Positions 1 through 55,144 of a stretch of 64,000 nucleotides of DNA are shown piece by piece. The position numbers were made by a program, and so were the translations under genes. The stretch is from Planctomycetota bacterium (GTDB lineage Bacteria; Planctomycetota; UBA8108; SXIK01). The notes beneath the pieces are model-generated. The model had not been told where the DNA came from, made no database searches, and saw nothing but the letters and a program-made list of their open reading frames with translations. How positions within the stretch are numbered: position 1 is the stretch's first letter; each line of letters starts with the position of its first letter. The stretch covers positions 4,091,822-4,155,821 of the forward strand of contig OZ244999.1 in the NCBI GenBank assembly GCA_965223265.1, in the 5' to 3' direction.

Positions 1-713
1 CCGCTAGAGACGAGTTCGACATCACCGACACGATCCTCGAGGCGCTGCGCGCCGAATTCGTTCTGCCGCAGGTCGATAACGATGAAGACGACGGCGACGG
101 TTGCGAGCTGATCATCGGCGTCCTGATCGATGCGGTGGCGCCGTTTGACGGTGCCACGATTCCACCGCTTGACTTCCCACAGCGCATGGGATGCGTCAGA
201 TTCACCGTCGACGACAACCCCGACCTTTGCGGCTGGTGCCTGCCCATCGAGTTCATTGACGGCCTCTCAGGAAGCGACATGGTACCAACGAAGAACCTCG
301 TCTCCGCCGAGAACGAAGCACGCTCACCGCTCCTCAATGGATGCGAGATTTGCGTTGGTGACGCGGCGCTCTTCTTCCGCGGCGATTGCAACTTCGACGG
401 TGGTGCAGAAGGGCTTGCCGTCGACATCGGAGACGCCGGCGCGCTGATCAGCCATCTCTTTTTTCCGGTGGGCTCTAGATTCGAGGTGCCTTGCCAAGAC
501 GCCTGCGACTGCAACGATGATGGCAGGCTCGACATAGCCGACGCCACCTGCATGCTCGCCTACCTGTTCCAGTCCGGCCCCATGCCGGATCTCCCAGGCC
601 CTGGTGCCGTGGGAGTGATTGGGGACGATCTGCCCCTCCGAGCCACGCCGCGCGGCGTGGATCCGACCGCCGACGACTTGGGCTGCACCGGCGGCACGGA
701 TTGCGGCAGTTGA
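1..713 (+). CDS. 3' end of a gene entering from upstream of the window. The C-terminal ~150 aa carry two dockerin-like Ca-binding modules with conserved Cys.
   Basis: Frame 3 is open from base 3 to the TGA at 711-713. Sequence RGDCNFDGGAEG...ISHLF and CDCNDDGRLDIADATCMLAYLF matches the DxNxDGxxD loop plus LLxxLF helix module seen in seven other proteins in this window. Confidence 0.6.
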   Translation, partial: ARDEFDITDTILEALRAEFVLPQVDNDEDDGDGCELIIGVLIDAVAPFDGATIPPLDFPQRMGCVRFTVDDNPDLCGWCLPIEFIDGLSGSDMVPTKNLVSAENEARSPLLNGCEICVGDAALFFRGDCNFDGGAEGLAVDIGDAGALISHLFFPVGSRFEVPCQDACDCNDDGRLDIADATCMLAYLFQSGPMPDLPGPGAVGVIGDDLPLRATPRGVDPTADDLGCTGGTDCGS

Positions 714-909
714 CCAGACTCTCCGGGCGCGATCATTCGGCCGCTCTACGGCCGGAAGCGACGTAAGGGAGTTCTTCACGCTCTGTTCGGTTAGACTGGG
801 CGCCAGAATGCGGCGGCCGGCACAGTGTGCCAGAGCAAACACCGGCGCCCGCGGCGACGGGGAATCGGTCCCCGCTGACACGTGTCTAACCTCGAGCTCG
901 GCCAACACT

Positions 910-2097
910 ATGCCATCCACACGCCTCATCGACGACGAGCGTGCCGTCTCGCACCTGATGAACTTTCTCGCCACCGAAGGACCGAGCCGCCAAGAACAGG
1001 GAGTCGCCCAGATCGTCCGAGAGAAACTCGTGGCCGCGGGGTGCAAGCCAGCCTGGATTCGGCATGATTCCGCCCATCGCCGTCTTGGCGATGGCCACCA
1101 GGTCGGAAACTTGATCGTGCACTGGCCGGCAAAGGGCGCGGGCCGCCGGTCGCAGCCGCGACGCCTCTTTTGCGGCCACATGGACACCGTCCCGCTTTGC
1201 CGTGGCGCCGTCCCCGTGCGCCGAGGGCGCCGCATCGTAGCGAAAGGTCAAACGGCTCTGGGGGGCGATAATCGAACCGCCGTGGCTGCGATCGTGACCG
1301 CTGCGGAAGCGATCCTCAAATCGGCGCGACCTCACCCACCGCTCACCCTCCTCTTCACAGTAGGCGAGGAAATCGGGCTTCGCGGTGCCCGGGAGGTGCG
1401 GTTAGCAGACCTACGGCGTCCGCAACTAGGCTTCAACGTCGACTCAGGCGATCCCGCGCGCGTGATCATCGGCGCGACCGCTGCTGAAAGGTGGGAGGTT
1501 GATGTCTTTGGCATTGCCGCCCACGCGGGGGTACATCCCGACAACGGCGTCTCCGCTGCGCTCATCGCTTCGCACGCCATCGCCGCCGTGGCCGAGGACG
1601 GATACTTCGGCAAGATCCAAAAAGGCCGCCAAACTGGGACCTCGAACGTGGGAATCGTCCGCGGTGGCGAAGCTACCAACCAGGTCACCGATCATGTCTA
1701 CATACTTGGAGAATCACGCAGCCACAACGCCAACTTCGTGAGGCGAATCACGCAGCGCTATGAGCGCGCGTTTCGCAGCGCTGCGACGCGGACGAAAAAC
1801 AGTGCGCGCCAGTCCGGGAAAGCGAGCTTTCGCTGGTGGCTGGATTATCCGTCGTTTCGTCTCCCGGCCTCGGAAGGGGTGATCCGCGTTGCGGAGGCGT
1901 CGGTGCGTCGGCTGGGATTGACGCCACAGCGCGTTATCGTCGACGGCGGCGTGGACGCCAACTACCTGAACTCCAAGGGCATCCCCACGGTCACGTTGGG
2001 CGCCGGCCAACACGGCGCCCACACCTTAGGAGAGTACGTCGACGTCAAAGAGTATCTCAGTGGCTGCAAGCTGTTGACGGACTTGATGAGCGGCTAG
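910..2097 (+). CDS. M20 family metallopeptidase (peptidase T / tripeptide aminopeptidase-like)
   Basis: HMDTV motif (CGHMDTVPL), metal-site region TVGEEIGLRGA, and GGEATNQVTDHV. ORF 619..2097; start placed at the Met at 910 to avoid overlapping the upstream gene. Starts at 619 or 808 are alternatives. Confidence 0.8.
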   Translation: MPSTRLIDDERAVSHLMNFLATEGPSRQEQGVAQIVREKLVAAGCKPAWIRHDSAHRRLGDGHQVGNLIVHWPAKGAGRRSQPRRLFCGHMDTVPLCRGAVPVRRGRRIVAKGQTALGGDNRTAVAAIVTAAEAILKSARPHPPLTLLFTVGEEIGLRGAREVRLADLRRPQLGFNVDSGDPARVIIGATAAERWEVDVFGIAAHAGVHPDNGVSAALIASHAIAAVAEDGYFGKIQKGRQTGTSNVGIVRGGEATNQVTDHVYILGESRSHNANFVRRITQRYERAFRSAATRTKNSARQSGKASFRWWLDYPSFRLPASEGVIRVAEASVRRLGLTPQRVIVDGGVDANYLNSKGIPTVTLGAGQHGAHTLGEYVDVKEYLSGCKLLTDLMSG

Positions 2098-2150
2098 CAG
2101 CCCGTGCGGCCAGAAGGCTGTTGAACGAGTGCGTGGCGCATCACGGCCGG

Positions 2151-2591
2151 CTAAAGATTCAGCTGCAAGCGGGCCGCGTCGGACATGCGATCCATCGTCC
2201 ATGGAGGATCCCACACGAGCTCTACTTTGCATTCGCGCACGCCCGGAGCGCCGCCGACTTTCTGTTCGACCTCCGGCGGCAAACTGCCGGCGACCGGACA
2301 TGCCGGCGACGTCAAAGTCATCCGCACGTGAGCCTTCGCATCCTGGTCGATCGCGACTTCGTAGATCAGCCCGATCTCGTAGATATTGACCGGAATTTCG
2401 GGGTCGAAAATCGTTCGTAGGACGCCGACAACGTTGTCCTTGATCACTTCCTCATCGGGATGTCGCTCGAAATCATAGGCGGAGGTCTCTGCAGCAGGCT
2501 TCTCTGCCGCCTGGCTTGCGTCTTTTGATGTCGATTCGCTGGACGACTTTTCGTCGTCACTCCTCGGCGCCTTCGGATGCTCTTCCACCAT
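2151..2591 (-). CDS. DUF59 (MIP18/SufT-like) Fe-S cluster assembly protein, last gene of the suf operon
   Basis: Conserved DUF59 core VIKDNVVGVLRTIFDPEIPVNIYEIGLIY...ACPVAG. Position directly downstream of sufU. Start at the internal Met (2591); 2618 or 2690 are possible alternatives. Confidence 0.7.
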   Translation of the reverse strand: MVEEHPKAPRSDDEKSSSESTSKDASQAAEKPAAETSAYDFERHPDEEVIKDNVVGVLRTIFDPEIPVNIYEIGLIYEVAIDQDAKAHVRMTLTSPACPVAGSLPPEVEQKVGGAPGVRECKVELVWDPPWTMDRMSDAARLQLNL

Positions 2592-2717
2592 ATGTTGCCT
2601 CCAGGTCACGCGCAGCATGCTATCCGCCGTGCTACGTCGCCGTTGATTCGTTTCGGTTTGCTGCGAGTCGACCGTTTGGACGTGAACCACATTGATCGAC
2701 TCGACGTGTGGCTGAAG

Positions 2718-6632: not shown

Positions 6633-6749
6633 AACTCTTTGTTCGTACGTCGTTGTCCACCTCGCCGTCGATAGCACACCTGACGATTTCAACCGAACAG
6701 GCGGATCTGTCGAGCGACGCGCTGACGTCAAAGTCAGTCGGCGTCTGAA

Positions 6750-8195
<1,446 letters not shown>

Positions 8196-8270
8196 TTGAT
8201 TCTTCGTCTCCTAACAGTCTGCTTGAAAAAAAGCCTCGCGCTCACCCCGACGTCGCCGCCGCAGGATCGG

Positions 8271-13376: not shown

Positions 13377-15812
13377 ATGCGCCTGCGAACGGCACTTGTT
13401 CTCGTCACGCTCGGCGCTGCGGGATGGTCGCCGGGAATCGACGCGCAAACGCCGTCTCTTTTCCGCCGCGGCGATATCAACGTCGACGGCGCCGTTGACG
13501 TGAGCGACGCGATCGGTCTACTCGCCGGCCTTTTTCGAGGCGTCGCCTTGCCACCCTGTGACGACGCCGCCGACGCGAACGATAGTGGCGACCTCGATCT
13601 CTCCGACGCCATCTTCGTGCTTGGCTATTTGTTTCGCGGCGCCGCGCGGCCACCACATCCTGGACCGAATCTCTGCGGCCGCGATCCGACACCGGACGAA
13701 CTAAGCTGTGACGAGTACCTGGCGACCGTGCCCGAATTCAACTGCGAGAACGCCGTTGAACAAGTGTTTCGTGGCCGCTTCTACGGCAGCATTCTCATCA
13801 CGCCGATCGTCTCCGATCTCAACGGCGACGGGCGACTCGACGTCATCGGCGTGCGAAACCGCAGCCTGGTCGTGATGCCTGGCGTCGGAGGCGGCACGTT
13901 CGGTGCCCCGAGGAGCTATCCGGCTCCGCGCCCCTCGGATCTCAGACTGCTCGATGTCGATGGCGACGGCATCCGCGATGCAGTGACCATCAGCCCTGGA
14001 GGCCGTTCACTCAGTGTGTTTCGCGGATTCGAGGACGGCACGTTCGACGACGCCACAACAACTGCGTTCACCGACGAGCCCGTCGGGTTCGACGCCGGTG
14101 ACTTGAACGGCGACCTCCGCGGCGACTTCGTCGTCACGGTGCTTTCTGCCGCCGGAATCGCCTCACTCGAAACGTGGATCGGCACTCCAGACCTCGCCGC
14201 GCTCGAGCGACGCTTCACGACTGTTGTTATTGACACTCCGCGCATCGGAGATGCCGTCGATGGAAACTCACCGCGCCTCGGAGACTTCAACAGTGATGGC
14301 ATGAACGACGTCGTCATCGTCGGCGCCGCGCTCAGATTCTTTTGGGGTAGCGGAGATGGCATTCTCACACCAGGACCTACGCGACAATTAGCCGAGCCCG
14401 CGCACGCGCTGGTTGTCGCCGAGTTCGGGGGTGGGCCAGACGTCGACTTGGCCGTCGCAACGACAACCTCAATCTCCGTCCTGCGCGGCCTCGGAACTGG
14501 TACGTTCGAGGCAGCCACGCAGCTGCCCGTGGAGACAGTGTCTCTTGCAGTCGGCGATGTCGACAGTGATGGCGATGGTGATATCGTTGCCGATGGCGTA
14601 ACCCTCCTTCGCAACGACGACGCGCTGCGGTTTACGCTCGTACGCAACGGCTGGCCTGACGCCCGTGGGCCAGCCGCGCTGCAGGATCTTGATGACGATG
14701 GGAACGCGGACCTGGTCGTCCCCGCATCGGGAGGCGTCGTCGTTCTCAAGGGGTCAGGGAGTGCCGACTTTCCAGCGCCGCACCTCCAACCGACGACGAC
14801 GCGCCAAACGAACATCGCGGTCGAAGACTTCGACGACGATGCTCGCGTGGATTTCGCCGTGACGTCAGAGAGCAGCGACCGAGTGCTGATCTTCCTGGGA
14901 AGTGATGGAAACCGTTTTGATACCCTGCAGTCGTTCAGCGTCGGCAGTGATCCATCGTTTGTCCTCGCCGCAGACGTCGATGACGATGCCATCACCGACC
15001 TCGTAGTGTTGAGCTTGGAAGACGACAGCATGTCCATCTTACTCGGGAGCGGCGACGGCACGTTCTCGCCGCCACGATCGCAACTCGTGGGAGACTCGCC
15101 GCGCGGGGTTGCGGCCGCGGATATCGACGACGACGGCGCGACGGACCTGGTGGTCGCAAACGGTGGGGTGAATTCATTTTCCCGCGGCTCGCTCCTCGTT
15201 CTGCGAGGGTCCGGTCAGGGATCCTTTCCAGAGTCACGCCCTTTGCCTTCGAGTCGGCGCCCGTGGGCGGTGTCGATCGCGCACGTCAATAGCGATGACG
15301 TCCTCGACATCCTCGTGGCAAATGAGCGCTCCTCGACTGTGACGGTCCATGTTGGCACCGGCGATGGGCAGTTTCAGCAAGCTCGCGATTACTTGGTCGA
15401 CGTACAGCCGACATCGCTTGCCGTTGGCGATCTTGACGGTGACGGCAACCTCGATTTCGTTACCGGCAACGATCGAGGTCACAGCGTCACGGCCTACCTG
15501 GGGCTCGGTGACGGGCGTTTCGACCGGGCCGGCACATTCGGACTTGGGTTCGAGACAAGCGATATCAGCGTCGTGGATATCGATGGCGATGGGCTGGTGG
15601 ACGTTCTAGCGACAACGAGCGGCACCGGCCAGCTAGCGGTTTTTCGCGGCCATGGCGATGGCTGGCTTTCGCCTCCGGAGTCTTATCCGGCAGGAGTCGG
15701 ATCCCGCGCATTTGCGCCGGCCGACGTGGATGGAGATGGCGACTTCGACGTACTGATCACAAACGTCGCCCGCGACGGCGTGACGGTTCTTGAGAATTCC
15801 GCCGTGCGTTAG
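13377..15812 (+). CDS. Secreted FG-GAP/VCBS-repeat beta-propeller protein with an N-terminal dockerin-like domain
   Basis: Signal peptide MRLRTALVLVTLGAAGWSPG. N-terminal RRGDINVDGAVDVSDAIGLLAGLF...DANDSGDLDLSDAIFVLGYLF dockerin-like pair. Then >10 FG-GAP-type repeats (DxDGDGxxD ... V). ORF opens at 13299; the Met at 13377 was chosen. Confidence 0.75.
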   Translation: MRLRTALVLVTLGAAGWSPGIDAQTPSLFRRGDINVDGAVDVSDAIGLLAGLFRGVALPPCDDAADANDSGDLDLSDAIFVLGYLFRGAARPPHPGPNLCGRDPTPDELSCDEYLATVPEFNCENAVEQVFRGRFYGSILITPIVSDLNGDGRLDVIGVRNRSLVVMPGVGGGTFGAPRSYPAPRPSDLRLLDVDGDGIRDAVTISPGGRSLSVFRGFEDGTFDDATTTAFTDEPVGFDAGDLNGDLRGDFVVTVLSAAGIASLETWIGTPDLAALERRFTTVVIDTPRIGDAVDGNSPRLGDFNSDGMNDVVIVGAALRFFWGSGDGILTPGPTRQLAEPAHALVVAEFGGGPDVDLAVATTTSISVLRGLGTGTFEAATQLPVETVSLAVGDVDSDGDGDIVADGVTLLRNDDALRFTLVRNGWPDARGPAALQDLDDDGNADLVVPASGGVVVLKGSGSADFPAPHLQPTTTRQTNIAVEDFDDDARVDFAVTSESSDRVLIFLGSDGNRFDTLQSFSVGSDPSFVLAADVDDDAITDLVVLSLEDDSMSILLGSGDGTFSPPRSQLVGDSPRGVAAADIDDDGATDLVVANGGVNSFSRGSLLVLRGSGQGSFPESRPLPSSRRPWAVSIAHVNSDDVLDILVANERSSTVTVHVGTGDGQFQQARDYLVDVQPTSLAVGDLDGDGNLDFVTGNDRGHSVTAYLGLGDGRFDRAGTFGLGFETSDISVVDIDGDGLVDVLATTSGTGQLAVFRGHGDGWLSPPESYPAGVGSRAFAPADVDGDGDFDVLITNVARDGVTVLENSAVR

Positions 15813-16089: not shown

Positions 16090-16122
16090 GCGTTGCGCTT
16101 TCATAACGTATTCATAACGTAT
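16090..16122. repeat. Three perfect tandem copies of the 11-mer TTCATAACGTA
   Basis: Read directly: ttcataacgta ttcataacgta ttcataacgta. The 11-bp period is about one helical turn. Confidence 0.85.
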
Positions 16123-16264
16123 TCATAACGTAGAAGTGACCGGCAAGATCGAGCCCCAATTGACCAACAATCGCCCTTTAACAGCTCGCTTGAAAAAGTC
16201 ATTCGGCCGAGAAACAGGCCTCTTCGCATCCAGTTTTCGACTCGAAGTACTTTTTCAACAGGCT

Positions 16265-40164: not shown

Positions 40165-42294
40165 TTAGAATTCACAGCTCTTTGGCCGCGTGGCGCAGCC
40201 GACCGCACCGTCGGCATCGAGTGTTGTCGGTCCGCACCAAGGAAACGGAGCTACCGGCGGTGCGCTGTCGGCAACGAAGAGAAAATTGAGCAGCGCGATC
40301 GGATCCGAGATATCGACGCCGGCGTCACCGTTGACGTTCAGCGCAGCCTGGCAGATCGGCTCCGAGCCAGTGTTGGTGAACAGTGCGTTCAGCGTGCAAA
40401 CCGCATCAGAGATGTCAGCGTCACCGTCGTCGTTGCAGTCGCCACGACGGAGGATGATCGCTGGCAGCGACTTCTCAAGCTGCAGCGTCATTTCGCTGAG
40501 CAAATCAAGCCAGGCCTCCGCCGCGCTTGGGGTCAACCTGCGCTCATCCACAACCGTCTCGACCGCAATTGCGAACCGCCGCAGCGCGTCGAAAAACTCG
40601 TCGAGGTCGCCGCGCTCAGCAGCCAGAACGGCGAGTTCGATCTCTCGGGCCAGGAGACGGACGTCTTCGGGTTCGAGAAAGGGTCCCGCTTCGACTTCAC
40701 GCGTGAGAGCGTCGCTCACCGAGTGCAGGTCGCCGCGCGCCTGCTTCACAAGCCAACCGTCGAAGTAACCAACGGAACCATCATCCGCAGGCTCCTCAAG
40801 AAGAGCGCCGCTCGTCGTCGGGAAGTTCGAAGACCACGAGAGTCCACCAGCGTAGACGCAGCCGCCCTCATCGACCGCGATGCTCCTGCCGAGATCGAGC
40901 GGCTCTAAGAGGAAACCCCCGCCCTCCGCCCCTCCCAGAGTCCTCGACGACTGGAGTGTTCGCCCGGTAGCGGAGACGACGGCGATGAACGCATCTCCCT
41001 TAATGTCGATGAAGCTATTCTCCGGGGGGACCGGAAATCCCGGTCGTGCGGCTCCGGTAACGTATGCCCTGCCAAAGCTGTCCACGTCGACTCGCTTGCC
41101 AGTGTCAGCACCGCCGCCGCCCAAATAAGACAAATAGACGAGTGCACGCCCGTTGGCGGAGATCTTTCCGACCCAGGCGTCCGCCCCACTTTCAGGAGAG
41201 AGATCGCAGCCGCACTCACGCTGAAACGCAAAGTCCGTCACGGGAAGGTCGCTCGAGGCGGTGTCGCCCGTCGCGTAGATATTCCCATCCGGGCCGATCT
41301 CGAGACCAAAGATGTGATCCGGTCCCGTGCCGCCCAGATATGTCGAAAAGACGAGCATGTTGAGACCGATCTTCGTCGGGTCGATCTTGGCGACCCAACC
41401 GTCGACGCTGCCGATTCTGTTCTCCTCGTAGACGCCGGTCGTGGTCGGAAACCCTCCCTCGGTATCTCCACCAACGTAAAAGAAGCCCTGCGCATCTACG
41501 GCAGCGCCTTGGGCCGTATCTTCGCGATCACCGCCGAGATAGAAACCACTGTACTGGACGCCGTTTTCGAGGAACAGAGCGACGAACCCGTCGGTACGTC
41601 CACCGTTGTATGTGAAGTCGAAGCCGAATTCGGTCACTGCAAAATCGCCATCCGTTGCGCCGACAATCATGACGCGTCCCTGGGGGTTGACGGCGATGTC
41701 GAATGCCTCGTCGTTTCCCGGACCGCCGAGATAGGTCGAGTAGACGATGGTCGTCGCGTCCGCGGTCAGCTTGACGACAACGGCGTCCCGCGGCGGTTGC
41801 TCTTGAGAAGGGTCTGTTGCCCCGTCGCCAAGCTCGCTCTGATGCGCCGCGACGGTCGGAAAGTCACCCGATCGAGTGAATCCCGTCACGTAAATGCTGC
41901 CATCGGCACCTATGGCCACGCCCGTGGCTTCGTCGAAACTGCTGCCACCGATGCGGCTCCCGCCCTCCAAAATCTGACTTCCGTCTGGACTGACCCGTAG
42001 GACGAAGATGTCGCCCTGGCCACAGTTTCCGAAGCTGTTGCACCCCTCCTGCGTCAAGACCCCCATCACACTTTCCGAACTGCTGGTACCGACGACAACC
42101 AAGTTGCCGTCCGGTGCCACAGCGACCGCGTTGATGGTGTCGCCGGAAGGGCCACCGAAGTAGGTACTGAAGTCGATCTCCGCGGCGACGAGGCGGAACA
42201 CGCCGAGCCCAGCAGTTCCAGCCGTGAGTGTTACCAGAATGACCGCGAGCCGGCGAAAGTGAACAAGTGAGGGCATGGTTGACGCACAGAGCAT
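40165..42294 (-). CDS. Secreted SBBP-type beta-propeller-repeat protein with C-terminal dockerin-like domain (tandem paralog 2)
   Basis: Same architecture as 37348..39456 at about 55-60% identity. Signal MLCASTMPSLVHFRRLAVILVTLTAGTAGLG. Dockerin RRGDCNDDGDADISDAVCTLNALF...NVNGDAGVDISDPIALLNFLF. AAGGAGA Shine-Dalgarno sequence before the ATG at 42294. Confidence 0.8.
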   Translation of the reverse strand: MLCASTMPSLVHFRRLAVILVTLTAGTAGLGVFRLVAAEIDFSTYFGGPSGDTINAVAVAPDGNLVVVGTSSSESVMGVLTQEGCNSFGNCGQGDIFVLRVSPDGSQILEGGSRIGGSSFDEATGVAIGADGSIYVTGFTRSGDFPTVAAHQSELGDGATDPSQEQPPRDAVVVKLTADATTIVYSTYLGGPGNDEAFDIAVNPQGRVMIVGATDGDFAVTEFGFDFTYNGGRTDGFVALFLENGVQYSGFYLGGDREDTAQGAAVDAQGFFYVGGDTEGGFPTTTGVYEENRIGSVDGWVAKIDPTKIGLNMLVFSTYLGGTGPDHIFGLEIGPDGNIYATGDTASSDLPVTDFAFQRECGCDLSPESGADAWVGKISANGRALVYLSYLGGGGADTGKRVDVDSFGRAYVTGAARPGFPVPPENSFIDIKGDAFIAVVSATGRTLQSSRTLGGAEGGGFLLEPLDLGRSIAVDEGGCVYAGGLSWSSNFPTTSGALLEEPADDGSVGYFDGWLVKQARGDLHSVSDALTREVEAGPFLEPEDVRLLAREIELAVLAAERGDLDEFFDALRRFAIAVETVVDERRLTPSAAEAWLDLLSEMTLQLEKSLPAIILRRGDCNDDGDADISDAVCTLNALFTNTGSEPICQAALNVNGDAGVDISDPIALLNFLFVADSAPPVAPFPWCGPTTLDADGAVGCATRPKSCEF

Positions 42295-42944: not shown

Positions 42945-44300
42945 TCAGAACTTCAACTCTGCCTGCAACCAGTAACGCTGAATATCGCCGCCAGCGAGTA
43001 CCGACTCGCCTTCAAACACGGCGAGCTTGGCAAGTACGGCAAGATTCTTCGTAATCGCTTTGCGCAGCGCTGCATCAAATTCGACACCGAAATCTCGGCT
43101 CCTGTCTTCAGAGAAGAACATGTGAAAAACCGCCTGGAACTTCATGTCCCAGGGAAGCGGCGCTCTGACGTACGCGTAGAGATCTTCCAGTCCGTCGGGA
43201 GGCGTGACCAAAAACTTGTCGGCCCAACCGTTGAACTTGTGCAGCGTGGCCAGTGGGGTACTGAAGGACGCGGCGCCCCCATCGCTGCTCAGCACCTCGT
43301 AGCCAACGCCAAACGTGCCAACGCCTTTGACTCCGACGTTCCCTTCGAGAAGAAGATAGTGAGCCTTGTAGTCGTTCGGATTGTCCCCCGCGTCGACCTG
43401 ATAGGCGTAGGACAGTATGTAGCCGAAGCTCAGTTTCTCCTCTTGAAACTTCTGCGTTCCGTTCAGGCGGAGACCGACAGTGTTCGAAGAGTTCACGTCA
43501 GAATTGGGAAGGTCGATCAAGTAGCCAAAGCCAGTCAACGTCCCTACCGGGAGGCCGGAGTAGGACGCGCGGATCAAATGCGAGTCTGATTTGAAATCGC
43601 GACCGGCGTCAGGCCCAAAGATCCGGTTCACTTCGTCAATGTACCCATAGTAAAGCGACAGATCTTCGACCCAATCAGATTGGATCGTGAGGGCGTCATA
43701 GGTCTGTTCATTCTGGCGCCACCCGACGTTGCCGACGAACCTGGCGTCGTCGAGAATGATGCGTTGCCGTCCAATCTTTCCGGTGAAGAAGTCGTGATCG
43801 TAGCGAATAAAGGCACGGTTTAGCTCCGTGTTCTCCGGGTCAGCGATCACAGTCTTTCCGGGTTCACCGTTGAGACCCGCGGCGTTGTAGAGGTCCTCGT
43901 CCGCCGAACGCGTATCTTCGAACTCCAAGAAGCCCGAGAATCCATAGAACGGTTTCGTCCCGTATCCGAGACGAAGCCGTTCCGTGTACGCTTGTGAAGT
44001 GTCGAGTCCTTCTTGTTCAGCGATCTCCACACGAGCTCGGAGGTCGAAACTCAGCTTTCCATTGATGATGGAATCCATAAATGAGTGCCAGACGCTCGCC
44101 TCTTCGCCACCAGAAGCGGGCCCCGCCACCTCTCCCGGTGCCGTTTCTTGAGGTGCTTGCCCTTGCAGCGAAGCGGCTTCCACACGCGGTGGCACGCTAG
44201 CTGCCTGGTCGCTGGGTTCAGCAACCACCGGACCGAGCGCCCAGAAAAGAAGGACTAAGGAAACAATCTGAAAGATTGGGTTGGAAATCGTCTTTTTCAT
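42945..44300 (-). CDS. Outer-membrane beta-barrel protein (alginate-export/AlgE-like porin family)
   Basis: Signal peptide MKKTISNPIFQIVSLVLLFWALGPVVA. Alternating amphipathic beta-strand pattern. C-terminal aromatic residue (..WLQAELKF). Family resemblance is a judgement, not verified. Confidence 0.65.
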   Translation of the reverse strand: MKKTISNPIFQIVSLVLLFWALGPVVAEPSDQAASVPPRVEAASLQGQAPQETAPGEVAGPASGGEEASVWHSFMDSIINGKLSFDLRARVEIAEQEGLDTSQAYTERLRLGYGTKPFYGFSGFLEFEDTRSADEDLYNAAGLNGEPGKTVIADPENTELNRAFIRYDHDFFTGKIGRQRIILDDARFVGNVGWRQNEQTYDALTIQSDWVEDLSLYYGYIDEVNRIFGPDAGRDFKSDSHLIRASYSGLPVGTLTGFGYLIDLPNSDVNSSNTVGLRLNGTQKFQEEKLSFGYILSYAYQVDAGDNPNDYKAHYLLLEGNVGVKGVGTFGVGYEVLSSDGGAASFSTPLATLHKFNGWADKFLVTPPDGLEDLYAYVRAPLPWDMKFQAVFHMFFSEDRSRDFGVEFDAALRKAITKNLAVLAKLAVFEGESVLAGGDIQRYWLQAELKF

Positions 44301-47739: not shown

Positions 47740-50700
47740 TCAATCGCACGGCGCGTATGACGCGCAATCGAGCGCATCCGCGGTGAGATCGCGACCGCAA
47801 AACGGAAACGGGGGCGCGATTCCAGCTTCGCCGCCGAAGAGATGCAGCAGGACCCTGATCGGATCGGAGACGGTCAAACGCCCGTCATCGTCAACGTCTG
47901 TGGACTTGAGACAACTCGGGATGAGGCCATCGCGAAAAAGGAACTCGAGCGCGTAAATCGCATCGGCGAGTTGTATGTCGCCATCAGCGTTGGCGTCGCT
48001 GCGGCGAAATCGGACATCTATCGCAGTGTCCGTGAGCCGCTGAAACGCGTTCACTTCAACCGCCGCGATGACCTGAAAGTCGCTGTCGAGATAGGCCGCG
48101 GCCGGGTTCGGCATGATCGGCGGCTCGGGTGCGGCGAGTTCAATTGCCCGCACCGGTCGTTCAACGAGCGCCAAATCGATCGGCGGATCAAAGACGATGA
48201 GATACTTCACGAAAGTATTGTGACGAAATGACGCATAGACGAGATTCCAGTAGTCCGCCACACGCAGATACGCTGATTCCGCAGCGACTTCGGCGGCGAC
48301 CAAGCTTGCCGGTCCGGTGCGACTTGGGTCTGGGCTAGGGATCGAGCGCTCTCGCAACCTCAGGCTCGTGCCATCCGCGAGTTCGGCCTCGATCGCCCAG
48401 AGGTCGAGAAGTTCGTAGGTGCACGACGAATACGCCACGCGCAGTGCGGCATCGCCGTCCGAGAATCCGGTCATGAAAAGCTCGTCGGTGATGAACTCTT
48501 CGTCAAGGATGACCTCACCGCGCTGCGGAACGCCGCCGGCAGCGCTAAACTCGACGTCGTCCAGGGTCACGACGAATGTTTCCCCGGCCGTACCTGGCAA
48601 GCTGAAGCGCTGCTCGTAGGTAAAACGATAAAGTGTCTCGCCGCCCGCACCGGGCCGTTTCGTCGCGCGCATTCGCCCGCGGCCGAGCGGCGTCGCTGTC
48701 ACCTGCGCAGGCCCAATCAGCACTTCGTCGATCAGGTCTAAACTGATCGATCCGGTCCGCCCGGCAAGCTCGAAGGTACCTGCACGCAGTCGTACGCGGC
48801 TCTTCGACGCCAGTCCGACCAAAGGGTCTTCTTCCGGAGCATTGACGTCGAGGACACCGCAGACGCTCGTCTCAGCGGGAATCTCCAGGACAAACATCGG
48901 CGTCGGTTGCCGCTCGGAGGTCAAGAGGAATGGCCGCACCTGCTTGACCGCCAGATCGCCGCTTGCTTCGATCTTGAACTCAAGGTCGAGCAAGACGTCG
49001 TCACGATCATGTTCGCCAAGAACGACGGGGAAATTCTGGTCCATGTGCCACATGACGGCGCCGAGCTCGCGGAGCGCCGCGTCGGTCATGACCAACGCAT
49101 CGCTCTCCACGAGCGTCGAACGCGTGGCGCGGATGATCTCCACGACCTCGCCGTCGACCACGTCGAGGAGCGTTTTCTCCGGCAACACGCCGGGTTCGGG
49201 ACTGACGACACTCTCCTCGCCAACTTGTGCTGTGACGACAAAGCGCCGGTCGTCAGGGTTCGCCGGGTCGCCAGTGAACGCGACGCCGTTGACCCGCTCG
49301 TCGAGGAAGGCGCGATTGACCAGAATGCCCATCGCGGCACTCGCCTGGGGAATCTGAAAAAAGGCGCGCTCTTCGTGGGCACGAAAAGTCCACAGGCTTG
49401 TCCACACCTTCTTGAGCGCACGCTCAAGCGTACGCTCGTTCGATTTGCTCGCGTCACAAAGCGATGGTCCCTCGTCATCACCGTCGAGCTGATCGGCTAG
49501 GCACGCTCCCGTGGACTCGTAGAGGCCAGCGCCGTTGAACTCGAGTAGGTCCTCGACGTTCGACGACGAGCGAAAACGGATCGATGTAGTCGCAGAAAAA
49601 ACTTCTTCGATACGGCTCCGCAGCAAAGCCAGAAGCTCGGGTGAAACCACGCCGGTGTCGCGCGCGACGTCGCGAAACGCCTGCAGCGCTTCAAAGCGCC
49701 GTCGTGAATCCGTTTGAAAATCCTCGAGCGTTGCGAGCTCGGTAAGAAACTCCTCGTACGAGACCTGACGGCCCGGATCGACCGGCGATGCCGTCCGGTT
49801 CCCCCGCATGAACTCCGTGTAGTAGCGTACGGGGATCGCGAAGCCTTTCTCGCGGTAGTCGGCAAACACTCCATCGAGAATCGTCTGCAGACGCGCGAGA
49901 TTGCTCGCCTTGCCGCCAAAGCGGGACTCCGGCAAGCCGCCCAGATCGAAGTCGGTGAGACGGTCCAGCGCTGCGTAGTTCGCGTCGAACGGCGGCAGGG
50001 CTGGCAACTGCGGTCGGTTCTCCTGCCAAAACGCCTCGGCGTCGGACAAATCCGCCGGGCTGACCTCGAACGAACTCTCGGTCACCTCGAGGCGGATCAA
50101 CTGATCGTCGAAAGGCGAGAAGCGTGCGCGCGCGTCCGCGACGAACGCGTTTGGCGTTCGTCGGCGCGCGGTGCGTACGGCAACGTGGCTCAAGGTTCCT
50201 TGTCGAGAACCGGTGATGACGCCGCCGACCACTCCCTCGATGTCACGAGGTGCTTCGTCGATGACGAGGACATCCTGAAACGTGAAAGCACCCGCTGCGT
50301 TCGCCGCCTCGAACTCCTCGAGCGTCAGCACCCTCACGCGCCCGAAACCGACTCCCGTCGTGTAAGCCTCAAAGTCGACAGCAGGGCCGGTATCGATGTC
50401 CAGAAGCACCTCAAATCCTGGATTCAACCAGCTTTCGGCGGTCTCTCGCGCAATCGGCGTATCCGGTAGATACGCAAGCGGCTGCAAGCTGATCGACTCG
50501 CGCAGGCGGTCGTACACATCCTTGACCTCAGCGACACCCAGCGCTTCGGACGCGCCGCTCCCGGTGTCAGCAACGACAGTAAAGGCATACACAAATGCGC
50601 CATCCGAGCGCAGTCGCTTGAGCGAACCGACATAGTAGTCGCGCGTCGCTCGGAGGCCAACCAATCGGTTGTACTCGGCTGGCCCCAGCGCCGGGAAGCG

Positions 50701-53160
50701 TTCAGGAAACACGCTAGCGAGGAAATCCTGATGCAGCTGGAAACGATGCGTGTTTTGGAAGGCCGTCGTCAGCAGCGCAGCATCGTCTCGCGCCGGAAGC
50801 ACGAACTTCGTTTCGCGCTCGCCCACAGCGCGTCGACGAGACGGGACGGCGACGCTGCGAAAATCGTTTTGCGTGCAGAGGCGAGGCAGGAAGTCGACAG
50901 TCGCAGGAAACTCCGTCGCGTTGTGCGACACGATGAGTTGGTTGTCCTGTCGATTCATGACGAGAAGATCGATCTTGCCGTCCTGATCGATGTCTTCGGA
51001 GACAGCGTACCGCGGCCCACTGCTGACCGCGCTGATCTGAACGGCTTCGACGAACGCATGAAGCGGTTCGGCAAACGTGCCATCGCCCCGGTTGACGAAA
51101 AGCGCCAGGCCGAGCGAGATTTCGTTCGACGTGACGAGGTCAAGGTGCCCATCTCCGTTGTAGTCTCCGGAGGTCATGGAGTACGGCAACTGCCGCACCG
51201 GATAGGTCCGCACAGTCTCGAATCGCAGCCCGCCGCGATTCTCCACCACCGCCATTTCTTGTTCGTTTTGGTTCGATGCCGCCAGGTCGTCGTCACCGTC
51301 GCCGTCCCAATCGCCCGCGACGACGAAGCTCGTACGCCCGAACGTCTCAATCGAACCAACGTGCTCGAAGGACGCGGAACCGTCGTTCGCCAGGATCTCC
51401 AGTTTGCCGGCTCCATTCGCGGCGACGAGGTCAAGGTCATGGTCGGCATCAAAGTCGCGTGCAACGACGCCCAGGAAGCGCCCCGGGATTCTGATGATGT
51501 CGACGCGCGGAAACGTGCCATCGCCGGCGTTGTGCAAAATCGTCACCGACGCGCCGCTGTCGGCGGTGATCACTTCGGGCCGTTCGTCACCGTTTAAATC
51601 GGCAGCGATGGCGTAAAACGGATCCACCCCACCAATGTAGTAGGCGCTCGATTCAAAGGTGCCGTCCGCATAGTTCAGCATGATCTCGGTGCGCCTGTCG
51701 TTCAAAAACGGCGACGCCACGTCGATGCTCCCGTTGCCGTCGAAATCGGCGGTCACGATAGAATTCGGATAGCCGTCGGCCGGTCGCGTCGCAGCCACCG
51801 AAAAAGCGCCTCTCCCGTCGTTGAGCAAGTAACAGGTAATGAACGCCCCGCCATGCCCGAACACGACGTCGAGGTCGCCGTCCTGATCGAGGTCGGCCAG
51901 CGATGGCGGCGAGTGCGGACGACTACCGCCTTCGTAAATGCGACTCACAAAACTTAACGCGCGGCCGTTCATCAGCATGCCGATCGAATCCGGGACTCGC
52001 TTCGCGACGCCAACGTCGATCGCCCCGTCGCCGTTCAGGTCGCCCGTTGCCACCCAGACCGCTTCTCCCTCCACGGCCACGTCGCGGCGCGCTTGAAAGC
52101 TGCCGTCGCCGCGGTTGACGAGCACGGCGACGGAGCGCGGTTCAGTTCCCACGATGACGTCCGTCGAACGATCGGAGTTGATATCGCCGACGCCGATGCA
52201 GCGGCCTTGAATCGCGAACGTTGCGTGCTCCTCCAAACGCCGTTCGGAACGGCTCGCGGTGAGCACGACCACGCCTTCCGCTGCCATCAAGGCGATGTCG
52301 TCGACCGAGTCGCCCGACACGTCCGCAACGGCAAACGTACGTGGATTCCCAACCGCCACAGACGCCGCGGTCTCTTCAAACCCGGCGTCTTCGCTTCCCC
52401 AAAGGACCGTGACGCCTGACGGCAGCAGGGCGGCGACGTCCTGCAGGCCATCCGCATCAAAGTCGCCACACGCGAGCGCCGCGATGTCCCCCACCATGTC
52501 GCGGGCCGCTAGCGGCGGTTCGAAAGTGCGTCCTTCGACGCCGCGAGCGACAAACAGCGCCTCGGATCCAAACCGCGCCAAGAGAAGGTCCTTGATGCCG
52601 TCGCGATCAACATCCGTGACCGCCACGGTCCGGGCGCCCTCAAAAGCGAACGAATCTGGCGTCCGTGGAAAGCTGCGTTCGCCGTCGTTCCACAAAATGA
52701 ACACCGCGTTCGGTTCCACATTGACGACGTCGAGAAACCCGTTGCCGTCGAGGTCGGCGACAACGAGGTCGATCGTGTCGGCACCGAGGCGACGGTAGGT
52801 CGGAGTTCCGACCACACCGTCCTCGTCTTGAAAAAAAATCCCGATCGTCGAACCCGCAGGACCGAGCGCGGCACTCATGAGATCGCTACGGCCGTCGCCG
52901 TCGAAGTCATGAACTGCGACGCGACGCGGGATGCCGCGCTGCTTCAGTCCGGGCACCGTCAAACCGAGCTCGAGCATGCCGAGCTCGCACTCGTCGGGTA
53001 CGCCGTCACCGTTACAGTCCTCGCTCGCGCTCGTGGCAAGGTCCATAGCGTCGTCGACACGGTTGCCGTTACAGTCAACGGCAGTCACAAACTCGACAGA
53101 GGCGAAAACGAACGTCGCCACAAGGACGTGGAGCGCCGCACAACGCGCTGATTCTTGCAT
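47740..53160 (-). CDS. Giant secreted multidomain protein B (~1806 aa), paralog of 16356..21797 with the same architecture
   Basis: Signal MQESARCAALHVLVATFVFASVEFVTA with GGAG Shine-Dalgarno sequence before the ATG at 53160. DCNGNRVDD / EDCNGDGVPDECE. FG-GAP repeats. GGVITGSRQGTLSHVAVRTARRRTPNAFV. GGKASNLARLQ, IRFRSSSNVEDLLEFNGAGLYES, KKVWTSLWTFRAHEER. C-terminal RRSDANADGDIQLADAIYALEFLF...DVDDDGRLTVSDPIRVLLHLF. Confidence 0.85.
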   Translation of the reverse strand: MQESARCAALHVLVATFVFASVEFVTAVDCNGNRVDDAMDLATSASEDCNGDGVPDECELGMLELGLTVPGLKQRGIPRRVAVHDFDGDGRSDLMSAALGPAGSTIGIFFQDEDGVVGTPTYRRLGADTIDLVVADLDGNGFLDVVNVEPNAVFILWNDGERSFPRTPDSFAFEGARTVAVTDVDRDGIKDLLLARFGSEALFVARGVEGRTFEPPLAARDMVGDIAALACGDFDADGLQDVAALLPSGVTVLWGSEDAGFEETAASVAVGNPRTFAVADVSGDSVDDIALMAAEGVVVLTASRSERRLEEHATFAIQGRCIGVGDINSDRSTDVIVGTEPRSVAVLVNRGDGSFQARRDVAVEGEAVWVATGDLNGDGAIDVGVAKRVPDSIGMLMNGRALSFVSRIYEGGSRPHSPPSLADLDQDGDLDVVFGHGGAFITCYLLNDGRGAFSVAATRPADGYPNSIVTADFDGNGSIDVASPFLNDRRTEIMLNYADGTFESSAYYIGGVDPFYAIAADLNGDERPEVITADSGASVTILHNAGDGTFPRVDIIRIPGRFLGVVARDFDADHDLDLVAANGAGKLEILANDGSASFEHVGSIETFGRTSFVVAGDWDGDGDDDLAASNQNEQEMAVVENRGGLRFETVRTYPVRQLPYSMTSGDYNGDGHLDLVTSNEISLGLALFVNRGDGTFAEPLHAFVEAVQISAVSSGPRYAVSEDIDQDGKIDLLVMNRQDNQLIVSHNATEFPATVDFLPRLCTQNDFRSVAVPSRRRAVGERETKFVLPARDDAALLTTAFQNTHRFQLHQDFLASVFPERFPALGPAEYNRLVGLRATRDYYVGSLKRLRSDGAFVYAFTVVADTGSGASEALGVAEVKDVYDRLRESISLQPLAYLPDTPIARETAESWLNPGFEVLLDIDTGPAVDFEAYTTGVGFGRVRVLTLEEFEAANAAGAFTFQDVLVIDEAPRDIEGVVGGVITGSRQGTLSHVAVRTARRRTPNAFVADARARFSPFDDQLIRLEVTESSFEVSPADLSDAEAFWQENRPQLPALPPFDANYAALDRLTDFDLGGLPESRFGGKASNLARLQTILDGVFADYREKGFAIPVRYYTEFMRGNRTASPVDPGRQVSYEEFLTELATLEDFQTDSRRRFEALQAFRDVARDTGVVSPELLALLRSRIEEVFSATTSIRFRSSSNVEDLLEFNGAGLYESTGACLADQLDGDDEGPSLCDASKSNERTLERALKKVWTSLWTFRAHEERAFFQIPQASAAMGILVNRAFLDERVNGVAFTGDPANPDDRRFVVTAQVGEESVVSPEPGVLPEKTLLDVVDGEVVEIIRATRSTLVESDALVMTDAALRELGAVMWHMDQNFPVVLGEHDRDDVLLDLEFKIEASGDLAVKQVRPFLLTSERQPTPMFVLEIPAETSVCGVLDVNAPEEDPLVGLASKSRVRLRAGTFELAGRTGSISLDLIDEVLIGPAQVTATPLGRGRMRATKRPGAGGETLYRFTYEQRFSLPGTAGETFVVTLDDVEFSAAGGVPQRGEVILDEEFITDELFMTGFSDGDAALRVAYSSCTYELLDLWAIEAELADGTSLRLRERSIPSPDPSRTGPASLVAAEVAAESAYLRVADYWNLVYASFRHNTFVKYLIVFDPPIDLALVERPVRAIELAAPEPPIMPNPAAAYLDSDFQVIAAVEVNAFQRLTDTAIDVRFRRSDANADGDIQLADAIYALEFLFRDGLIPSCLKSTDVDDDGRLTVSDPIRVLLHLFGGEAGIAPPFPFCGRDLTADALDCASYAPCD

Positions 53161-53424
53161 ACTCACTCCGCGAACAACCTCGGCTAGTCTCACCGCACAC
53201 AATTGTAACGGACGCCTCGGCGATTCAGCTCACTGTTCGTCGAGAAACATCGACGTACGCAGCCGAACGTTCCGTCTCCACCTGAAGGAGACTGGGAGAC
53301 ACCGTACACCTCAGTCGCGATCAAAGATTATTCGATCGTCCGAAGTCCTCGCTTCCCGTAGCATGAAGGCGAAGCGCTCGCGAGCCATCAGCGCTCGGAA
53401 CACTCGAGTCTATCAGGTAGCTCC

Positions 53425-54186
53425 ATGACATTTAGCAAACGCCTCGCGCAGGAGTACGCCGAGGACGGCTTCGTCACAGCCGTCGAGGTCTTCCCTGAGG
53501 ATGAGATTCGCGAGTATCGCCGCGCCTTCGACGCGCTCGAGGCGCGGGAAGGCAAGGAGCGCTGCCAAATTGGCATCATGGGACGCCACTTTGAGGAGGA
53601 GTTTATTTGGCGCATGGCCACGCAGCGGCGGCTCCTCGACCTCATGGAGGCGCTTGTCGGCGAGGATCTGGTCCTGCTGTCGACCCACTTCTTCTGTAAG
53701 TACCCTGACAAGGAGGCGACGAAGTTCGTCGCTTGGCACCAAGACGTCACCTACTGGGGCCTCGAACCGCCGACGGCGCACACCGCGTGGATCGCCATCG
53801 ACGACGCTGACGAGGAAAACGGCTGCATGTTGGTTCTCCCGGGTTCGCACAAGCGAGGAATCGTCCAGCATGGCACGTCGGCGCGCAGTGGCAACCTCCT
53901 CAGCATCAACCAGGAAATTCCGGCCGCTGAGATCGACGAGCGGCAAGCGGTCTGCCTCCCACTCAAGGCCGGGCAAGCGTCGGTCCACGACGGGCAGCTC
54001 TTTCACGCCAGTCGACCGAACCGCTCCACACGCCGGCGCTGCGGCATGACGGTTCGATTCATTCCACCGAACGCGCGCCAAGTGAGCCCTAACTCCGTTG
54101 GTGAGCCGTGGCGTCCGATTCTCGTTCGCGGCAGGGACCGTTACGGCTATCACGGCACGGTGGAGCCTCCGTTCCTACTGTCATAG
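53425..54186 (+). CDS. Phytanoyl-CoA dioxygenase (PhyH) family Fe(II)/2-oxoglutarate oxygenase
   Basis: WHQDVTYW, LPGSHKRG and H...SRPN motifs typical of PhyH-family dioxygenases. 253 aa. Confidence 0.8.
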   Translation: MTFSKRLAQEYAEDGFVTAVEVFPEDEIREYRRAFDALEAREGKERCQIGIMGRHFEEEFIWRMATQRRLLDLMEALVGEDLVLLSTHFFCKYPDKEATKFVAWHQDVTYWGLEPPTAHTAWIAIDDADEENGCMLVLPGSHKRGIVQHGTSARSGNLLSINQEIPAAEIDERQAVCLPLKAGQASVHDGQLFHASRPNRSTRRRCGMTVRFIPPNARQVSPNSVGEPWRPILVRGRDRYGYHGTVEPPFLLS

Positions 54187-54280
54187 CACGGTCACTGCGC
54201 CACGTCCCAGCCCCAAAAAAACGCAGGGTGTACCGTCAAGCACACCCTGCTGCCTCACGTCAAACCTCGTTCATTTAGCG

Positions 54281-55144
54281 TCAGTTACAACCTTGGTGCG
54301 CATCTTCCGAGATTTCGTTGGGGCCGATCGACGCGCTCCAGGGTCCAGCGTCAGCGCACTGGTCGTTGTCGGGATTGCCATCGATGAAGATGTCTGGGTC
54401 CAGTGACAGCACGGCGCGGAAAGAGACTGACGGCGGCGCTTCGTACAGCGGCCACGATCTGTCGTAAGAAACCTGTAGACTCGCGCCCACGTCTAACTCC
54501 GTGAAGTCGAGACGTGCGACCTCCCGCGGACTTGAACCCGACACCTCTTCGTAAAGTATGAAACTCTGCTGCCCAGGGCGCGAACGAAACGGTGCGGCAC
54601 CAATGTTGAGTAAGTCCGCGGTGACGCGGATCGCGGCGAAGTCGGCGAAGCATTGAGTGCTGCGGACGATGATTCCACTGACTTCGAGCGCCGGACATCC
54701 CGCGGGACCGCATTCACTCTCGAGCGCACAGGTGAGTCCATCCGGGGTGGGGTCGAATCCGCAATCACCCACTGGGGGTGGTAAGACCGGTGAACCGAGA
54801 AACAGAAAGCCGAGCAAAGCGAGCGGGTCGGAGATGTCGAGGATACCGTCGTCATTGGCGTCGGCCGCATCGAAACAGCCGCGGGCGGGGGAACCCGCTA
54901 CGAAGAGAAAATTGAGCGTGAAGAGCGCGTCCGACACATCGGCGTCGCCGTCACGGTTAGCGTCGCCGCGCTCAAAGGAATGATTCAGCAGTCCACCATC
55001 GGGGAGAGGCCCGATGTCTGGAATTTCGATTGGCGGCTCGAAAATGCCAGGATCGAAGATCTGCGCACTCAGTGACGGGAACACGAAAGCAGCGAAGAGA
55101 AGAACGGCGGCGAGGAAACGCGGGTGCGAGGGGGAGTGACGCAT
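54281..55144 (-). CDS. Secreted protein with N-terminal dockerin-like domain and an unknown C-terminal beta domain
   Basis: Signal MRHSPSHPRFLAAVLLFAAFVFPSLSA. ERGDANRDGDADVSDALFTLNFLF...DANDDGILDISDPLALLGFLF. ORF opens at 55357; the Met at 55144 was chosen. Confidence 0.65.
   Translation of the reverse strand: MRHSPSHPRFLAAVLLFAAFVFPSLSAQIFDPGIFEPPIEIPDIGPLPDGGLLNHSFERGDANRDGDADVSDALFTLNFLFVAGSPARGCFDAADANDDGILDISDPLALLGFLFLGSPVLPPPVGDCGFDPTPDGLTCALESECGPAGCPALEVSGIIVRSTQCFADFAAIRVTADLLNIGAAPFRSRPGQQSFILYEEVSGSSPREVARLDFTELDVGASLQVSYDRSWPLYEAPPSVSFRAVLSLDPDIFIDGNPDNDQCADAGPWSASIGPNEISEDAHQGCN

Follow-up and report, generated by a model that had tools for sequence, protein, structure and literature searches.

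Does the small calcium-loop module that recurs in eight proteins encoded close together on one planctomycete contig belong to a docking system of the cohesin-dockerin kind, and if so, where is the partner to which it would bind? The DNA in question, here called the window, is a 64,000-nucleotide stretch of contig OZ244999.1 (positions 4,091,822 to 4,155,821, forward strand) from the Planctomycetota assembly GCA_965223265.1. A preliminary description of the window, made from its letters and open reading frames (ORFs), had likened the module to a dockerin and had found no cohesin to go with it. The analysis given here identifies the module, by profile and predicted fold, as a dockerin of a cysteine-bearing type, finds part of a cohesin at the very edge of the window, and leads to the view that the eight proteins probably belong to a non-cellulolytic cohesin-dockerin assembly system, of which the window would encode seven cargo proteins, each with its tag, and the end of a scaffoldin. 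The Planctomycetota possess many very large secreted repeat proteins of unclear role, and the organisation of their cell surface is poorly understood; if such tags dock onto multi-cohesin scaffolds, membership of a single surface complex would become a testable role for many hypothetical proteins.

One module in eight proteins

A six-frame scan of the window for loops of the form D-x-N-x-D-G-x-x-D returned many loops of the FG-GAP type and a smaller subset in which an LLxxLF helix follows the loop. A hidden Markov model (HMM) subsequently built from seven hand-extracted modules was searched against all 941 stop-to-stop ORFs of the window and matched exactly eight of them, here lettered A to H, with E-values from 4.9e-19 to 1.4e-37 and no ninth match at E<=10. 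The eighth, the metallophosphoesterase carrier B, was recovered although it had been left out of model building. The eight modules align over about 89 columns, including both calcium-loop and helix halves in every copy, and 14 positions are invariant: R3, D5, N7, D9, D16, L24, F25, C34, D50, L55, L58, F59, P68 and G73. The preliminary description is thus borne out in its count of eight carriers, in the loop followed twice by an LLxxLF helix and, as the coordinates confirm, in the placement of the module at the C-terminus of six proteins and directly behind the signal peptide of two. What it had said of the cysteines holds in part: the one after helix 1 (C34) is invariant, but the supposedly terminal C-G occurs in seven of the eight modules and lies about 17 residues before the module end.

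The carriers are not eight independent events. Carriers E and F are tandem paralogues with 62.5% identity, and D and G, each of about 1800 residues, are paralogues with 41% identity over 1837 columns, so that the set reduces to six independent families. Modules of non-paralogous carriers share only 32-55% pairwise identity, and on this measure the tag is old and not a recent copy. Each of the seven complete carriers begins with a hydrophobic segment followed by an AxA-like site, and all seven are therefore predicted to be exported.

Dockerin identity of the module

When the isolated modules were compared with Pfam, Dockerin_1 was the best match for six of the eight, one of them above the family's cut-off, and one module had no match at all. 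The EF-hand models (EF-hand_7, EF-hand_1, EF-hand_5 and EF-hand_6) matched three modules, all below their cut-offs (best 23.1 against 30 bits), and they scored lower than Dockerin_1 except in module G, where EF-hand_7 reached 15.5 bits against 11.2. NCBIfam gave no dockerin-family match for the eight modules and holds no model for the module. A profile of all eight placed type I dockerins first among the sequences of the PDB (2y3n_B at E=1e-5, then 4fl4, 2mte, 1daq and others), with EF-hand proteins lower down. Within the module there are two tandem segments of calcium loop and LLxxLF-type helix, with D5, N7, D9 and D16 invariant in the first loop and D50 in the second.

The predicted structure agrees. 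An AlphaFold2 (AF2) model of module H, computed from a 128-sequence alignment, has a pLDDT of 90.1 and a pTM of 0.82 and contains three helices (residues 14-25, 35-38 and 49-60). In a Foldseek search of the PDB with this model, 30 of the 31 matches were dockerins (root-mean-square deviation 1.4-3.8 A; target-normalised TM mostly 0.5-0.83, maximum 0.83), and no EF-hand protein was among the 31. Because dockerins rank first in the profile search and take all but one of the fold matches, the module is, by profile and by predicted fold, a dockerin and not a generic EF-hand; the outcome that the preliminary description had named as fatal to its proposal, a module resembling only EF-hand or thrombospondin-type-3 loops, was not what was found.

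A cysteine-bearing variant

Residues 61-89 of the module form a C-terminal extension of about 28 residues, with the consensus P-P-x-P-x-x-x-C-G-x-D-P-T-x-D-x-L-x-C, which is absent from solved dockerins. Its cysteines were followed through 541 unique full-length modules from relatives. C34 is present in 99% and C83 in 95%, the two occurring together; C72 (55%) and C89 (38%) co-occur with a phi of 0.68; and C6 (15%) is paired either with C19 (phi 0.67) or with C38 (phi 0.51), C19 and C38 never being found together in one module. Beta-bridge assignments in the AF2 model of module H fall on two positions only, 34 and 83, so that the universal pair comes to lie side by side. A C34-C83 disulfide therefore probably ties the extension to the linker between the helices, and the co-occurrence patterns point to further, optional disulfides between C72 and C89 and between C6 and C19 or C38. 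A disulfide-braced module would fit an oxidising extracytoplasmic location and, if its pairing with a cohesin is real, the cohesin-dockerin toolbox of synthetic biology would gain an oxidation-stable pair.

The resemblance to the type I dockerins of clostridial and ruminococcal cellulosomes (PF00404) is nevertheless extensive: it includes the duplicated calcium loop and helix (D-x-N-x-D-G-x-x-D-x-x-D), the three-helix fold seen in the model, the mostly C-terminal position on secreted proteins and the best matches in both sequence and structure. The module of the window differs in its additional C-terminal residues (P-P...C-G-x-D-P-T-x-D-x-L-x-C...C) and in C34 and C83, which are nearly universal in modules of this type and absent from solved dockerins. 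It differs also in setting, since most copies fall below the Pfam cut-off, the cargo does not consist of plant-cell-wall enzymes and the host is a diderm of planctomycete type. On these sequence features the module is a lineage-typical, cysteine-bearing variant distinct from clostridial dockerins, much as the preliminary description had supposed.

A probable scaffoldin gene at the window edge

The same description had seen no cohesin or scaffoldin in the window and had offered two nearby proteins as possible partners, neither of which withstands scrutiny: the lipoprotein 28143..29261 matches no Pfam family, PDB sequence or cohesin HMM, and the outer-membrane protein 42945..44300 is a porin barrel of the Alginate_exp type. 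What made the cohesin seem to be missing is that the left edge of the window falls inside the probable scaffoldin gene. Protein A (1..713, + strand) enters the window already inside a cohesin, of which the C-terminal two thirds, about 107 residues, are encoded at 3..323 and the N-terminal third lies outside; fused to it is the dockerin at 372..704, which scores 103.8 bits with the module HMM and 21.5 bits with Dockerin_1, against a cut-off of 22.9.

The 123 residues that precede module A resemble the second half of a cohesin. A phmmer search of related loci found this region just before the dockerins of two proteins of one locus (L043), both of which carry the motif G-F-Q-x-x-L-x-(W/Y)-D-P. 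From these two proteins a cohesin family, here family X, was iterated with all window sequences excluded; its HMM scored the window fragment at E=3.6e-18 after the first round and at 1.3e-6 after five broadening rounds. Compared with the PDB, the 35-member profile of family X retrieved cohesins in 32 of 33 matches (best 3l8q_A, E=3.3e-8), and 23 of the 35 members match Pfam Cohesin. The fold was tested on a full-length homologue in place of the truncated window copy. A database search with protein A yielded 60 homologues, one of which, P0322, is complete at 344 residues and 41% identical to protein A; its AF2 model shows a beta-sandwich (68-248) followed by a dockerin, with a domain pLDDT of about 85-95, and its top 39 Foldseek matches in the PDB are all cohesins (E 1e-8 to 1e-5, TM up to 0.80).

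A scan of metagenomes with protein A added 19 orthologues, which align with all of its 234 residues at 50-57% identity and were annotated with the dockerin and cohesin HMMs. Those that can be read have a signal peptide and one to six cohesins, most often three: between the signal peptide and the dockerin (Doc) there are three cohesins (Coh) in 13 orthologues, five in two and six in one. At some of these loci three or four scaffoldin-like genes follow one another, in the order CCCD, CCD, CD, CCD (C, cohesin; D, dockerin). Since the fragment scores as a cohesin and the orthologues combine several cohesins with a dockerin, it is very probable that gene 1..713 is what remains, at its 3' end, of a scaffoldin with several cohesins. 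Its dockerin belongs to a distinct, scaffoldin-type subtype, conserved in 58 homologues, which has a first loop of 16 residues with a 5-residue insertion, the C6/C38 pair, a longer tail and additional Cys. This is as would be expected of a scaffoldin dockerin whose specificity is unlike that of the cargo dockerins. No second cohesin was detectable in the window by the cohesin HMMs, and on the scaffoldins no carbohydrate-binding module (CBM), X-module or S-layer homology (SLH) or sortase anchor was detected; the window ORFs likewise contain no SLH or other anchor domain. The giant proteins D and G, considered as cohesin bearers, did not match the cohesin HMMs, and P0155, a protein of similar length, was rejected as their orthologue.

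Among scaffoldin relatives on long contigs, the closest (L084/L085) reads signal peptide-Coh-Coh-linker-Coh-Doc and has a frameshift inside its third cohesin (L084, about 7400-7420), so that gene calling gives two overlapping genes, of 450 and 242 residues. The split is identical in an ENA and a Logan assembly; it may be a genuine frameshift, the mark of a pseudogene or a mistake of assembly.

Distribution and architectures in relatives

Searched against 1.84 billion cluster representatives, the module profile matched 44,467 at a threshold of E<=1e-3, of which 24,897 remained at E<=1e-10, and most of the matching clusters are named only as hypothetical proteins in their sources. A search of GTDB species genomes with a 4-module alignment gave at least 501 confirmed relatives, with a best module identity of 60%; the figures for loci come from the best 80 of these. 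The great majority (69 of the 80) are labelled Planctomycetota, Planctomycetes or Planctomycetia, and several metagenome-assembled genomes (MAGs) hold four to nine of the 80 each. Together the 80 loci, 1.08 Mb in all, contain 146 modules, and half of them have two to five. In the relatives a further module is met about once every 16 kb around the seed, as against seven extra in the 64-kb window, which stands at the dense end of the range without being exceptional and owes part of its density to local duplication. The preliminary description had staked its proposal on the module being clustered and not ubiquitous; in related genomes it is common and present in many copies, which are typically grouped locally, through true clustering or perhaps simply through a very high copy number. 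Five loci on contigs of Parcubacteria, Nanoarchaeota and Woesearchaeota MAGs (L025, L031, L038, L047 and L058), one of them on a contig of 539 kb, carry a planctomycete-type dockerin with 49-56% identity, possibly through mislabelling or contamination of the bins.

In related carriers (140 ORFs) the module is mostly terminal: 122 of its 143 copies end no more than 15 residues from the C-terminus. The accompanying cargo was surveyed with Pfam in 71 related carriers, in which 62 families were matched and the 25 most frequent listed; 30 of the 71 also match Dockerin_1 at E<=1e-3. Beta_helix and FG-GAP are each found in seven, CotH, PKD and LTD in four each, Laminin_G_3 and PPDK_N in three each, and Sulfatase, SBBP and DHOR in two each, with single matches to peroxidase, subtilase and multicopper-oxidase families. 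No cellulase is among the 25 most frequent of the 62 families, and no CBM match was found alongside the cargo of the window carriers or of the related ones. As read from these domain matches, the cargo is diverse, consisting largely of binding or adhesion modules with assorted enzymes, and is not cellulolytic.

Beyond the dockerin-only proteins (112), the related proteins include the architectures DCDCD (30), DCD (28) and DCCD (24), and many carry two to eight tandem dockerins, DD to DDDDDDDD, without a cohesin. The gaps between domains are short, about 17-20 residues. No ORF with a cohesin and no dockerin occurs in the 1.08 Mb of related loci, a sample selected by dockerin, and in a search seeded with cohesin all 18 complete proteins were of the form signal peptide-Coh-Doc, the matches all being shorter than 300 residues; even with samples biased in these two ways, the regularity is notable. 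About one in nine dockerin ORFs bears a cohesin in the relatives, and one in eight does so in the window.

A proposed assembly system and its alternatives

The explanation that we consider probable is that the window encodes parts of a cohesin-dockerin assembly system of non-cellulolytic kind. Its scaffoldin would be secreted and built as signal peptide-(cohesin)n-dockerin, where n is at least three in orthologues, and its clients would be the seven exported cargo proteins, each with one calcium-loop dockerin. By analogy with cellulosomes, the cargo dockerins would, after Sec export, bind Ca2+ and plug into the cohesins of the scaffoldin, whose own dockerin, being of a distinct subtype, may fasten the scaffold with its cargo to the envelope or to another cohesin, so that adhesin-like propellers and enzymes would be displayed together at the cell surface. 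The recurrence of the same cargo types in relatives (FG-GAP in seven, PPDK_N in three and SBBP in two of the 71 carriers) counts among the points in favour of such a system. A cellulosome-like docking system, as the preliminary description had proposed, is still the best reading of the locus, and a likely one.

Several observations weigh against this explanation. Seven of the eight modules score below the Dockerin_1 cut-off of 22.9 bits, which the module of D alone passes (30.1 bits), and the assignment of disulfides comes from conservation and not from any measured geometry. The window fragment taken alone has no Pfam match, and it is transitive homology, together with the orthologues, that makes it a cohesin; a profile of a narrow subfamily (A5) reached cohesins in the PDB only at E=0.45-1, and an HMM built from a further alignment (A4) after removal of its window row gave the fragment only E=0.019, a difficulty that the subfamily-level leave-out HMM resolved. 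The one cohesin fragment of the window sits in the probable scaffoldin, protein A, which may or may not accept the seven cargo dockerins. Finally, no anchoring protein, that is, a cohesin with a membrane or cell-wall anchor, was found, and every cohesin protein sampled also has a dockerin.

This last point also speaks for the alternative that we regard as unlikely but the most serious, namely that the module is a tag independent of cohesins. As a disulfide-braced domain dependent on Ca2+, it would have some other ligand, such as a glycan of the envelope, the outer membrane or a component of secretion or sorting, or it would merely stabilise exported proteins, in which case the cohesin beside module A would have nothing to do with the seven cargo proteins. 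The C-terminal position in 122 of 143 instances is reminiscent of sorting tags, dockerin ORFs outnumber cohesin-bearing ones by about 9:1, and the many proteins with two to eight tandem modules and no cohesin would be unusual as cellulosomal enzymes. C-terminal placement and an excess of dockerins are, however, also usual in cellulosomes, where dockerins are mostly C-terminal and outnumber cohesins. The module occurs at N-terminal and internal positions as well and is therefore not a terminal signal; it has the predicted fold of a dockerin; and cohesins of one family are found alongside it at the level of protein, locus and phylum, the window included. A quite different possibility is that polymerisation into an extracellular network or filament is the primary function and the docking of cargo secondary. 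It arises because cohesins are always found in cis with dockerins (CD, CCD, CCCD, DCD, DCDCD), and it draws on the numbers of DCDCD, DCD and DCCD proteins, on the lack of cohesin-only ORFs in the related loci, on the 18 of 18 complete signal peptide-Coh-Doc proteins and on the short gaps between domains. Most of these samples were selected by dockerin and are biased accordingly, and the cohesin-seeded search returned only proteins below 300 residues; moreover, the dockerin of protein A is of a distinct subtype, which speaks against simple self-binding, and cellulosomal scaffoldins normally have a dockerin in cis, usually of different specificity. We hold a self-assembling matrix of this kind to be improbable.

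That the modules are generic EF-hand or thrombospondin-type-3 calcium loops, superficially similar to dockerins and without a docking role, is the reading to which we give almost no credence. Weak EF-hand matches on three of the eight modules, one of which (G) scores above Dockerin_1, can be cited for it, as can the similar DxDxDG loops in the FG-GAP repeats of the same proteins. It is largely refuted by the rank of dockerins above EF-hand proteins in the profile search, by the structural matches, 30 of 31 to dockerins and none to an EF-hand, by the failure of every EF-hand model to reach its cut-off and by the conservation of the 89-residue module as a unit, tail and cysteines included. To return to the assembly system preferred here, a wider proposal may tentatively be drawn from it: that a large surface-display system exists in the Planctomycetota and in certain neighbouring phyla, built from disulfide-locked dockerins and highly divergent cis cohesins that would polymerise into a matrix or filaments showing giant FG-GAP and beta-propeller proteins together with enzymes. 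Such a system would, with the same reserve, be a general architecture and not a degradative cellulosome, and one that is essentially unstudied.

Comparison with known systems

Non-cellulosomal cohesin and dockerin modules are known; Peer et al. (2009), cited in PMC6461901, reportedly treated them. The scaffoldins of cellulosomes (CipA, ScaA/ScaB) resemble the orthologues of gene 1..713 in their tandem cohesins followed by one dockerin and in the predicted cohesin fold. They differ in their linkers, which are Pro/Thr-rich there and here are short or Cys/Asp-rich (C-x-N-G-x-D-D-D-G-D), and the cohesins here are mostly too divergent for the Pfam cut-off; relatives of the window proteins also include the alternating Doc-Coh-Doc-Coh-Doc form. 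Surveys that rely on Pfam cut-offs miss most cohesins and dockerins of this kind. A cellulosome in the strict sense combines glycoside hydrolase, carbohydrate esterase or polysaccharide lyase cargo and a CBM on the scaffold with anchoring by SLH domains or sortase; such a combination of cargo and CBM was not seen in the window carriers or among the 25 most frequent families of the related ones, and no such anchoring was seen in the window ORFs or related loci.

Within the Planctomycetes, a "planctosome" has been hypothesised for the freshwater Nemodlikiaceae, a non-cellulolytic cohesin/dockerin complex with signal-peptide-bearing components, modelled with an LTD-anchored one-cohesin protein, a Doc-HYR-Coh adaptor and dockerin-tagged M12B and M14 peptidases (Andrei et al., 2019; PMC6461901). 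The principle of cohesin and dockerin is the same, but in the present case the cargo consists of beta-propellers and a phosphatase, the scaffold has several cohesins, and neither LTD nor HYR is present in the window, nor any other planctosome domain on its carriers, although LTD is present on four of the 71 related ones. The cellulosome-like system proposed for Ca. Stygibacter (Cloacimonadota) is similar in its diderm host, its C-terminal dockerins on mixed enzymes and its multi-cohesin scaffold, and differs in that this scaffold has CBMs and an anchor in the form of a C-terminal domain of the type IX secretion system (PMC8542988), of which there was no sign here. Complete genomes were surveyed in 2024, with one record of a species of the Planctomycetes-Verrucomicrobia-Chlamydiae (PVC) group with a two-cohesin scaffoldin (PMC11557425), and a 2025 review of the Planctomycetota mentions neither cohesin nor dockerin. 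In the literature searched we found no description of the cysteine-braced, extended dockerin defined above, a very abundant subfamily, nor of (Coh)3-6-Doc scaffoldins or clusters of their genes in the Planctomycetota lineage, nor of alternating Doc-Coh architectures.

Carriers and cargo in the window

The cargo of the seven complete carriers had been called diverse, and Pfam agrees, assigning Metallophos with Pur_ac_phosph_N to one protein, SBBP to two, FG-GAP (11 repeats) to one and FG-GAP with PPDK_N to two. Carrier C (13377..15812, +) has a signal peptide, an N-terminal dockerin (13461-13727) and then the 11 FG-GAP repeats. It is followed by carrier D (16356..21797, +; 1813 residues), with a signal peptide, FG-GAP repeats, a PPDK_N-like domain and a C-terminal dockerin (21528-21791), whose paralogue G (47740..53160, -; about 1800 residues) has FG-GAP, PPDK_N and a C-terminal dockerin (47746-48009). 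Carrier B (34748..36409, +; start codon inferred) is a metallophosphoesterase resembling purple acid phosphatases, with a signal peptide and a C-terminal dockerin (36119-36406) that is the most divergent copy, at 64 bits and E=4.9e-19 with the module HMM. The tandem carriers E (37348..39456, -) and F (40165..42294, -) each consist of a signal peptide, an SBBP beta-propeller and a C-terminal dockerin (37357-37635 and 40174-40452), and in carrier H (54281..55144, -) a signal peptide and an N-terminal dockerin (54710-54976) precede about 140 residues without a recognised domain.

The giant proteins have further peculiarities. PPDK_N, the AMP/ATP-binding domain of pyruvate phosphate dikinase, is matched at E of about 1e-14 at 19596-20591 (+) in D and 48907-49923 (-) in G; an ATP-utilising domain in an apparently exported FG-GAP protein of some 1800 residues is odd, and the same combination occurs in three of the 71 related carriers. 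Just after the signal peptide both proteins have the motif D-C-N-x-N-G-x-P-D-x-C-E, twice in D (16440-16523, +) and at 53019-52993 (-) in G, a Cys-flanked, calcium-loop-like element distinct from the dockerin; the linkers between the cohesins of scaffoldin orthologues (L094 and L084; C-x-N-G-x-D-D-D-G-D) resemble it. Upstream of gene D, in the intergenic region, lie two perfect 11-bp tandem repeats, TTCATAACGTA in three copies (16100-16132) and GTTAACTCGAG in 2.5 copies (16265-16291), which could be regulatory. A motif like a ribosome-binding site, CCAAGGAGAA, stands just upstream of the inferred ATG of E (39457-39472, -) and of F (42295-42310, -), and these start codons are favoured over longer ORFs because the motif precedes each of them.

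Neighbouring genes and minor features

The carriers lie on both strands, with the suf operon and other housekeeping genes between them. In the 250-bp regions upstream of seven carriers the best shared 8-mer occurs in five of seven and the best 10-mer in three of seven, no better than in random segments of the window; there is no support for co-regulation of the carriers, nor for the regulon envisaged in the preliminary description. The gene content of the window is otherwise like that of planctomycetes, including a sulfatase, a 3-keto-disaccharide-hydrolase domain and a GFO/IDH/MocA protein with a twin-arginine translocation (TAT) signal. Between scaffoldin gene A and the next carrier there is a complete suf operon for Fe-S cluster assembly (2151-8831, -), encoding SufB, SufC, SufD, SufS, a NifU-like scaffold, a FeS_assembly_P protein and an Rrf2 regulator, and after it a 1-Cys peroxiredoxin. 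The M20 peptidase 619..2097 has no dockerin. The lipoprotein 28143..29261 is Cys-rich and ends with a single D-V-D-D-D-G-S-I-D loop (28191-28217, -) followed by two cysteines, which do not amount to a full dockerin. A perfect microsatellite, (CGTTTG) in 11.5 copies, occupies 26059-26127, with a nearby (GCCGTGT) array of 6.9 copies at 26343-26391, and the ORFs surrounding them look non-coding.

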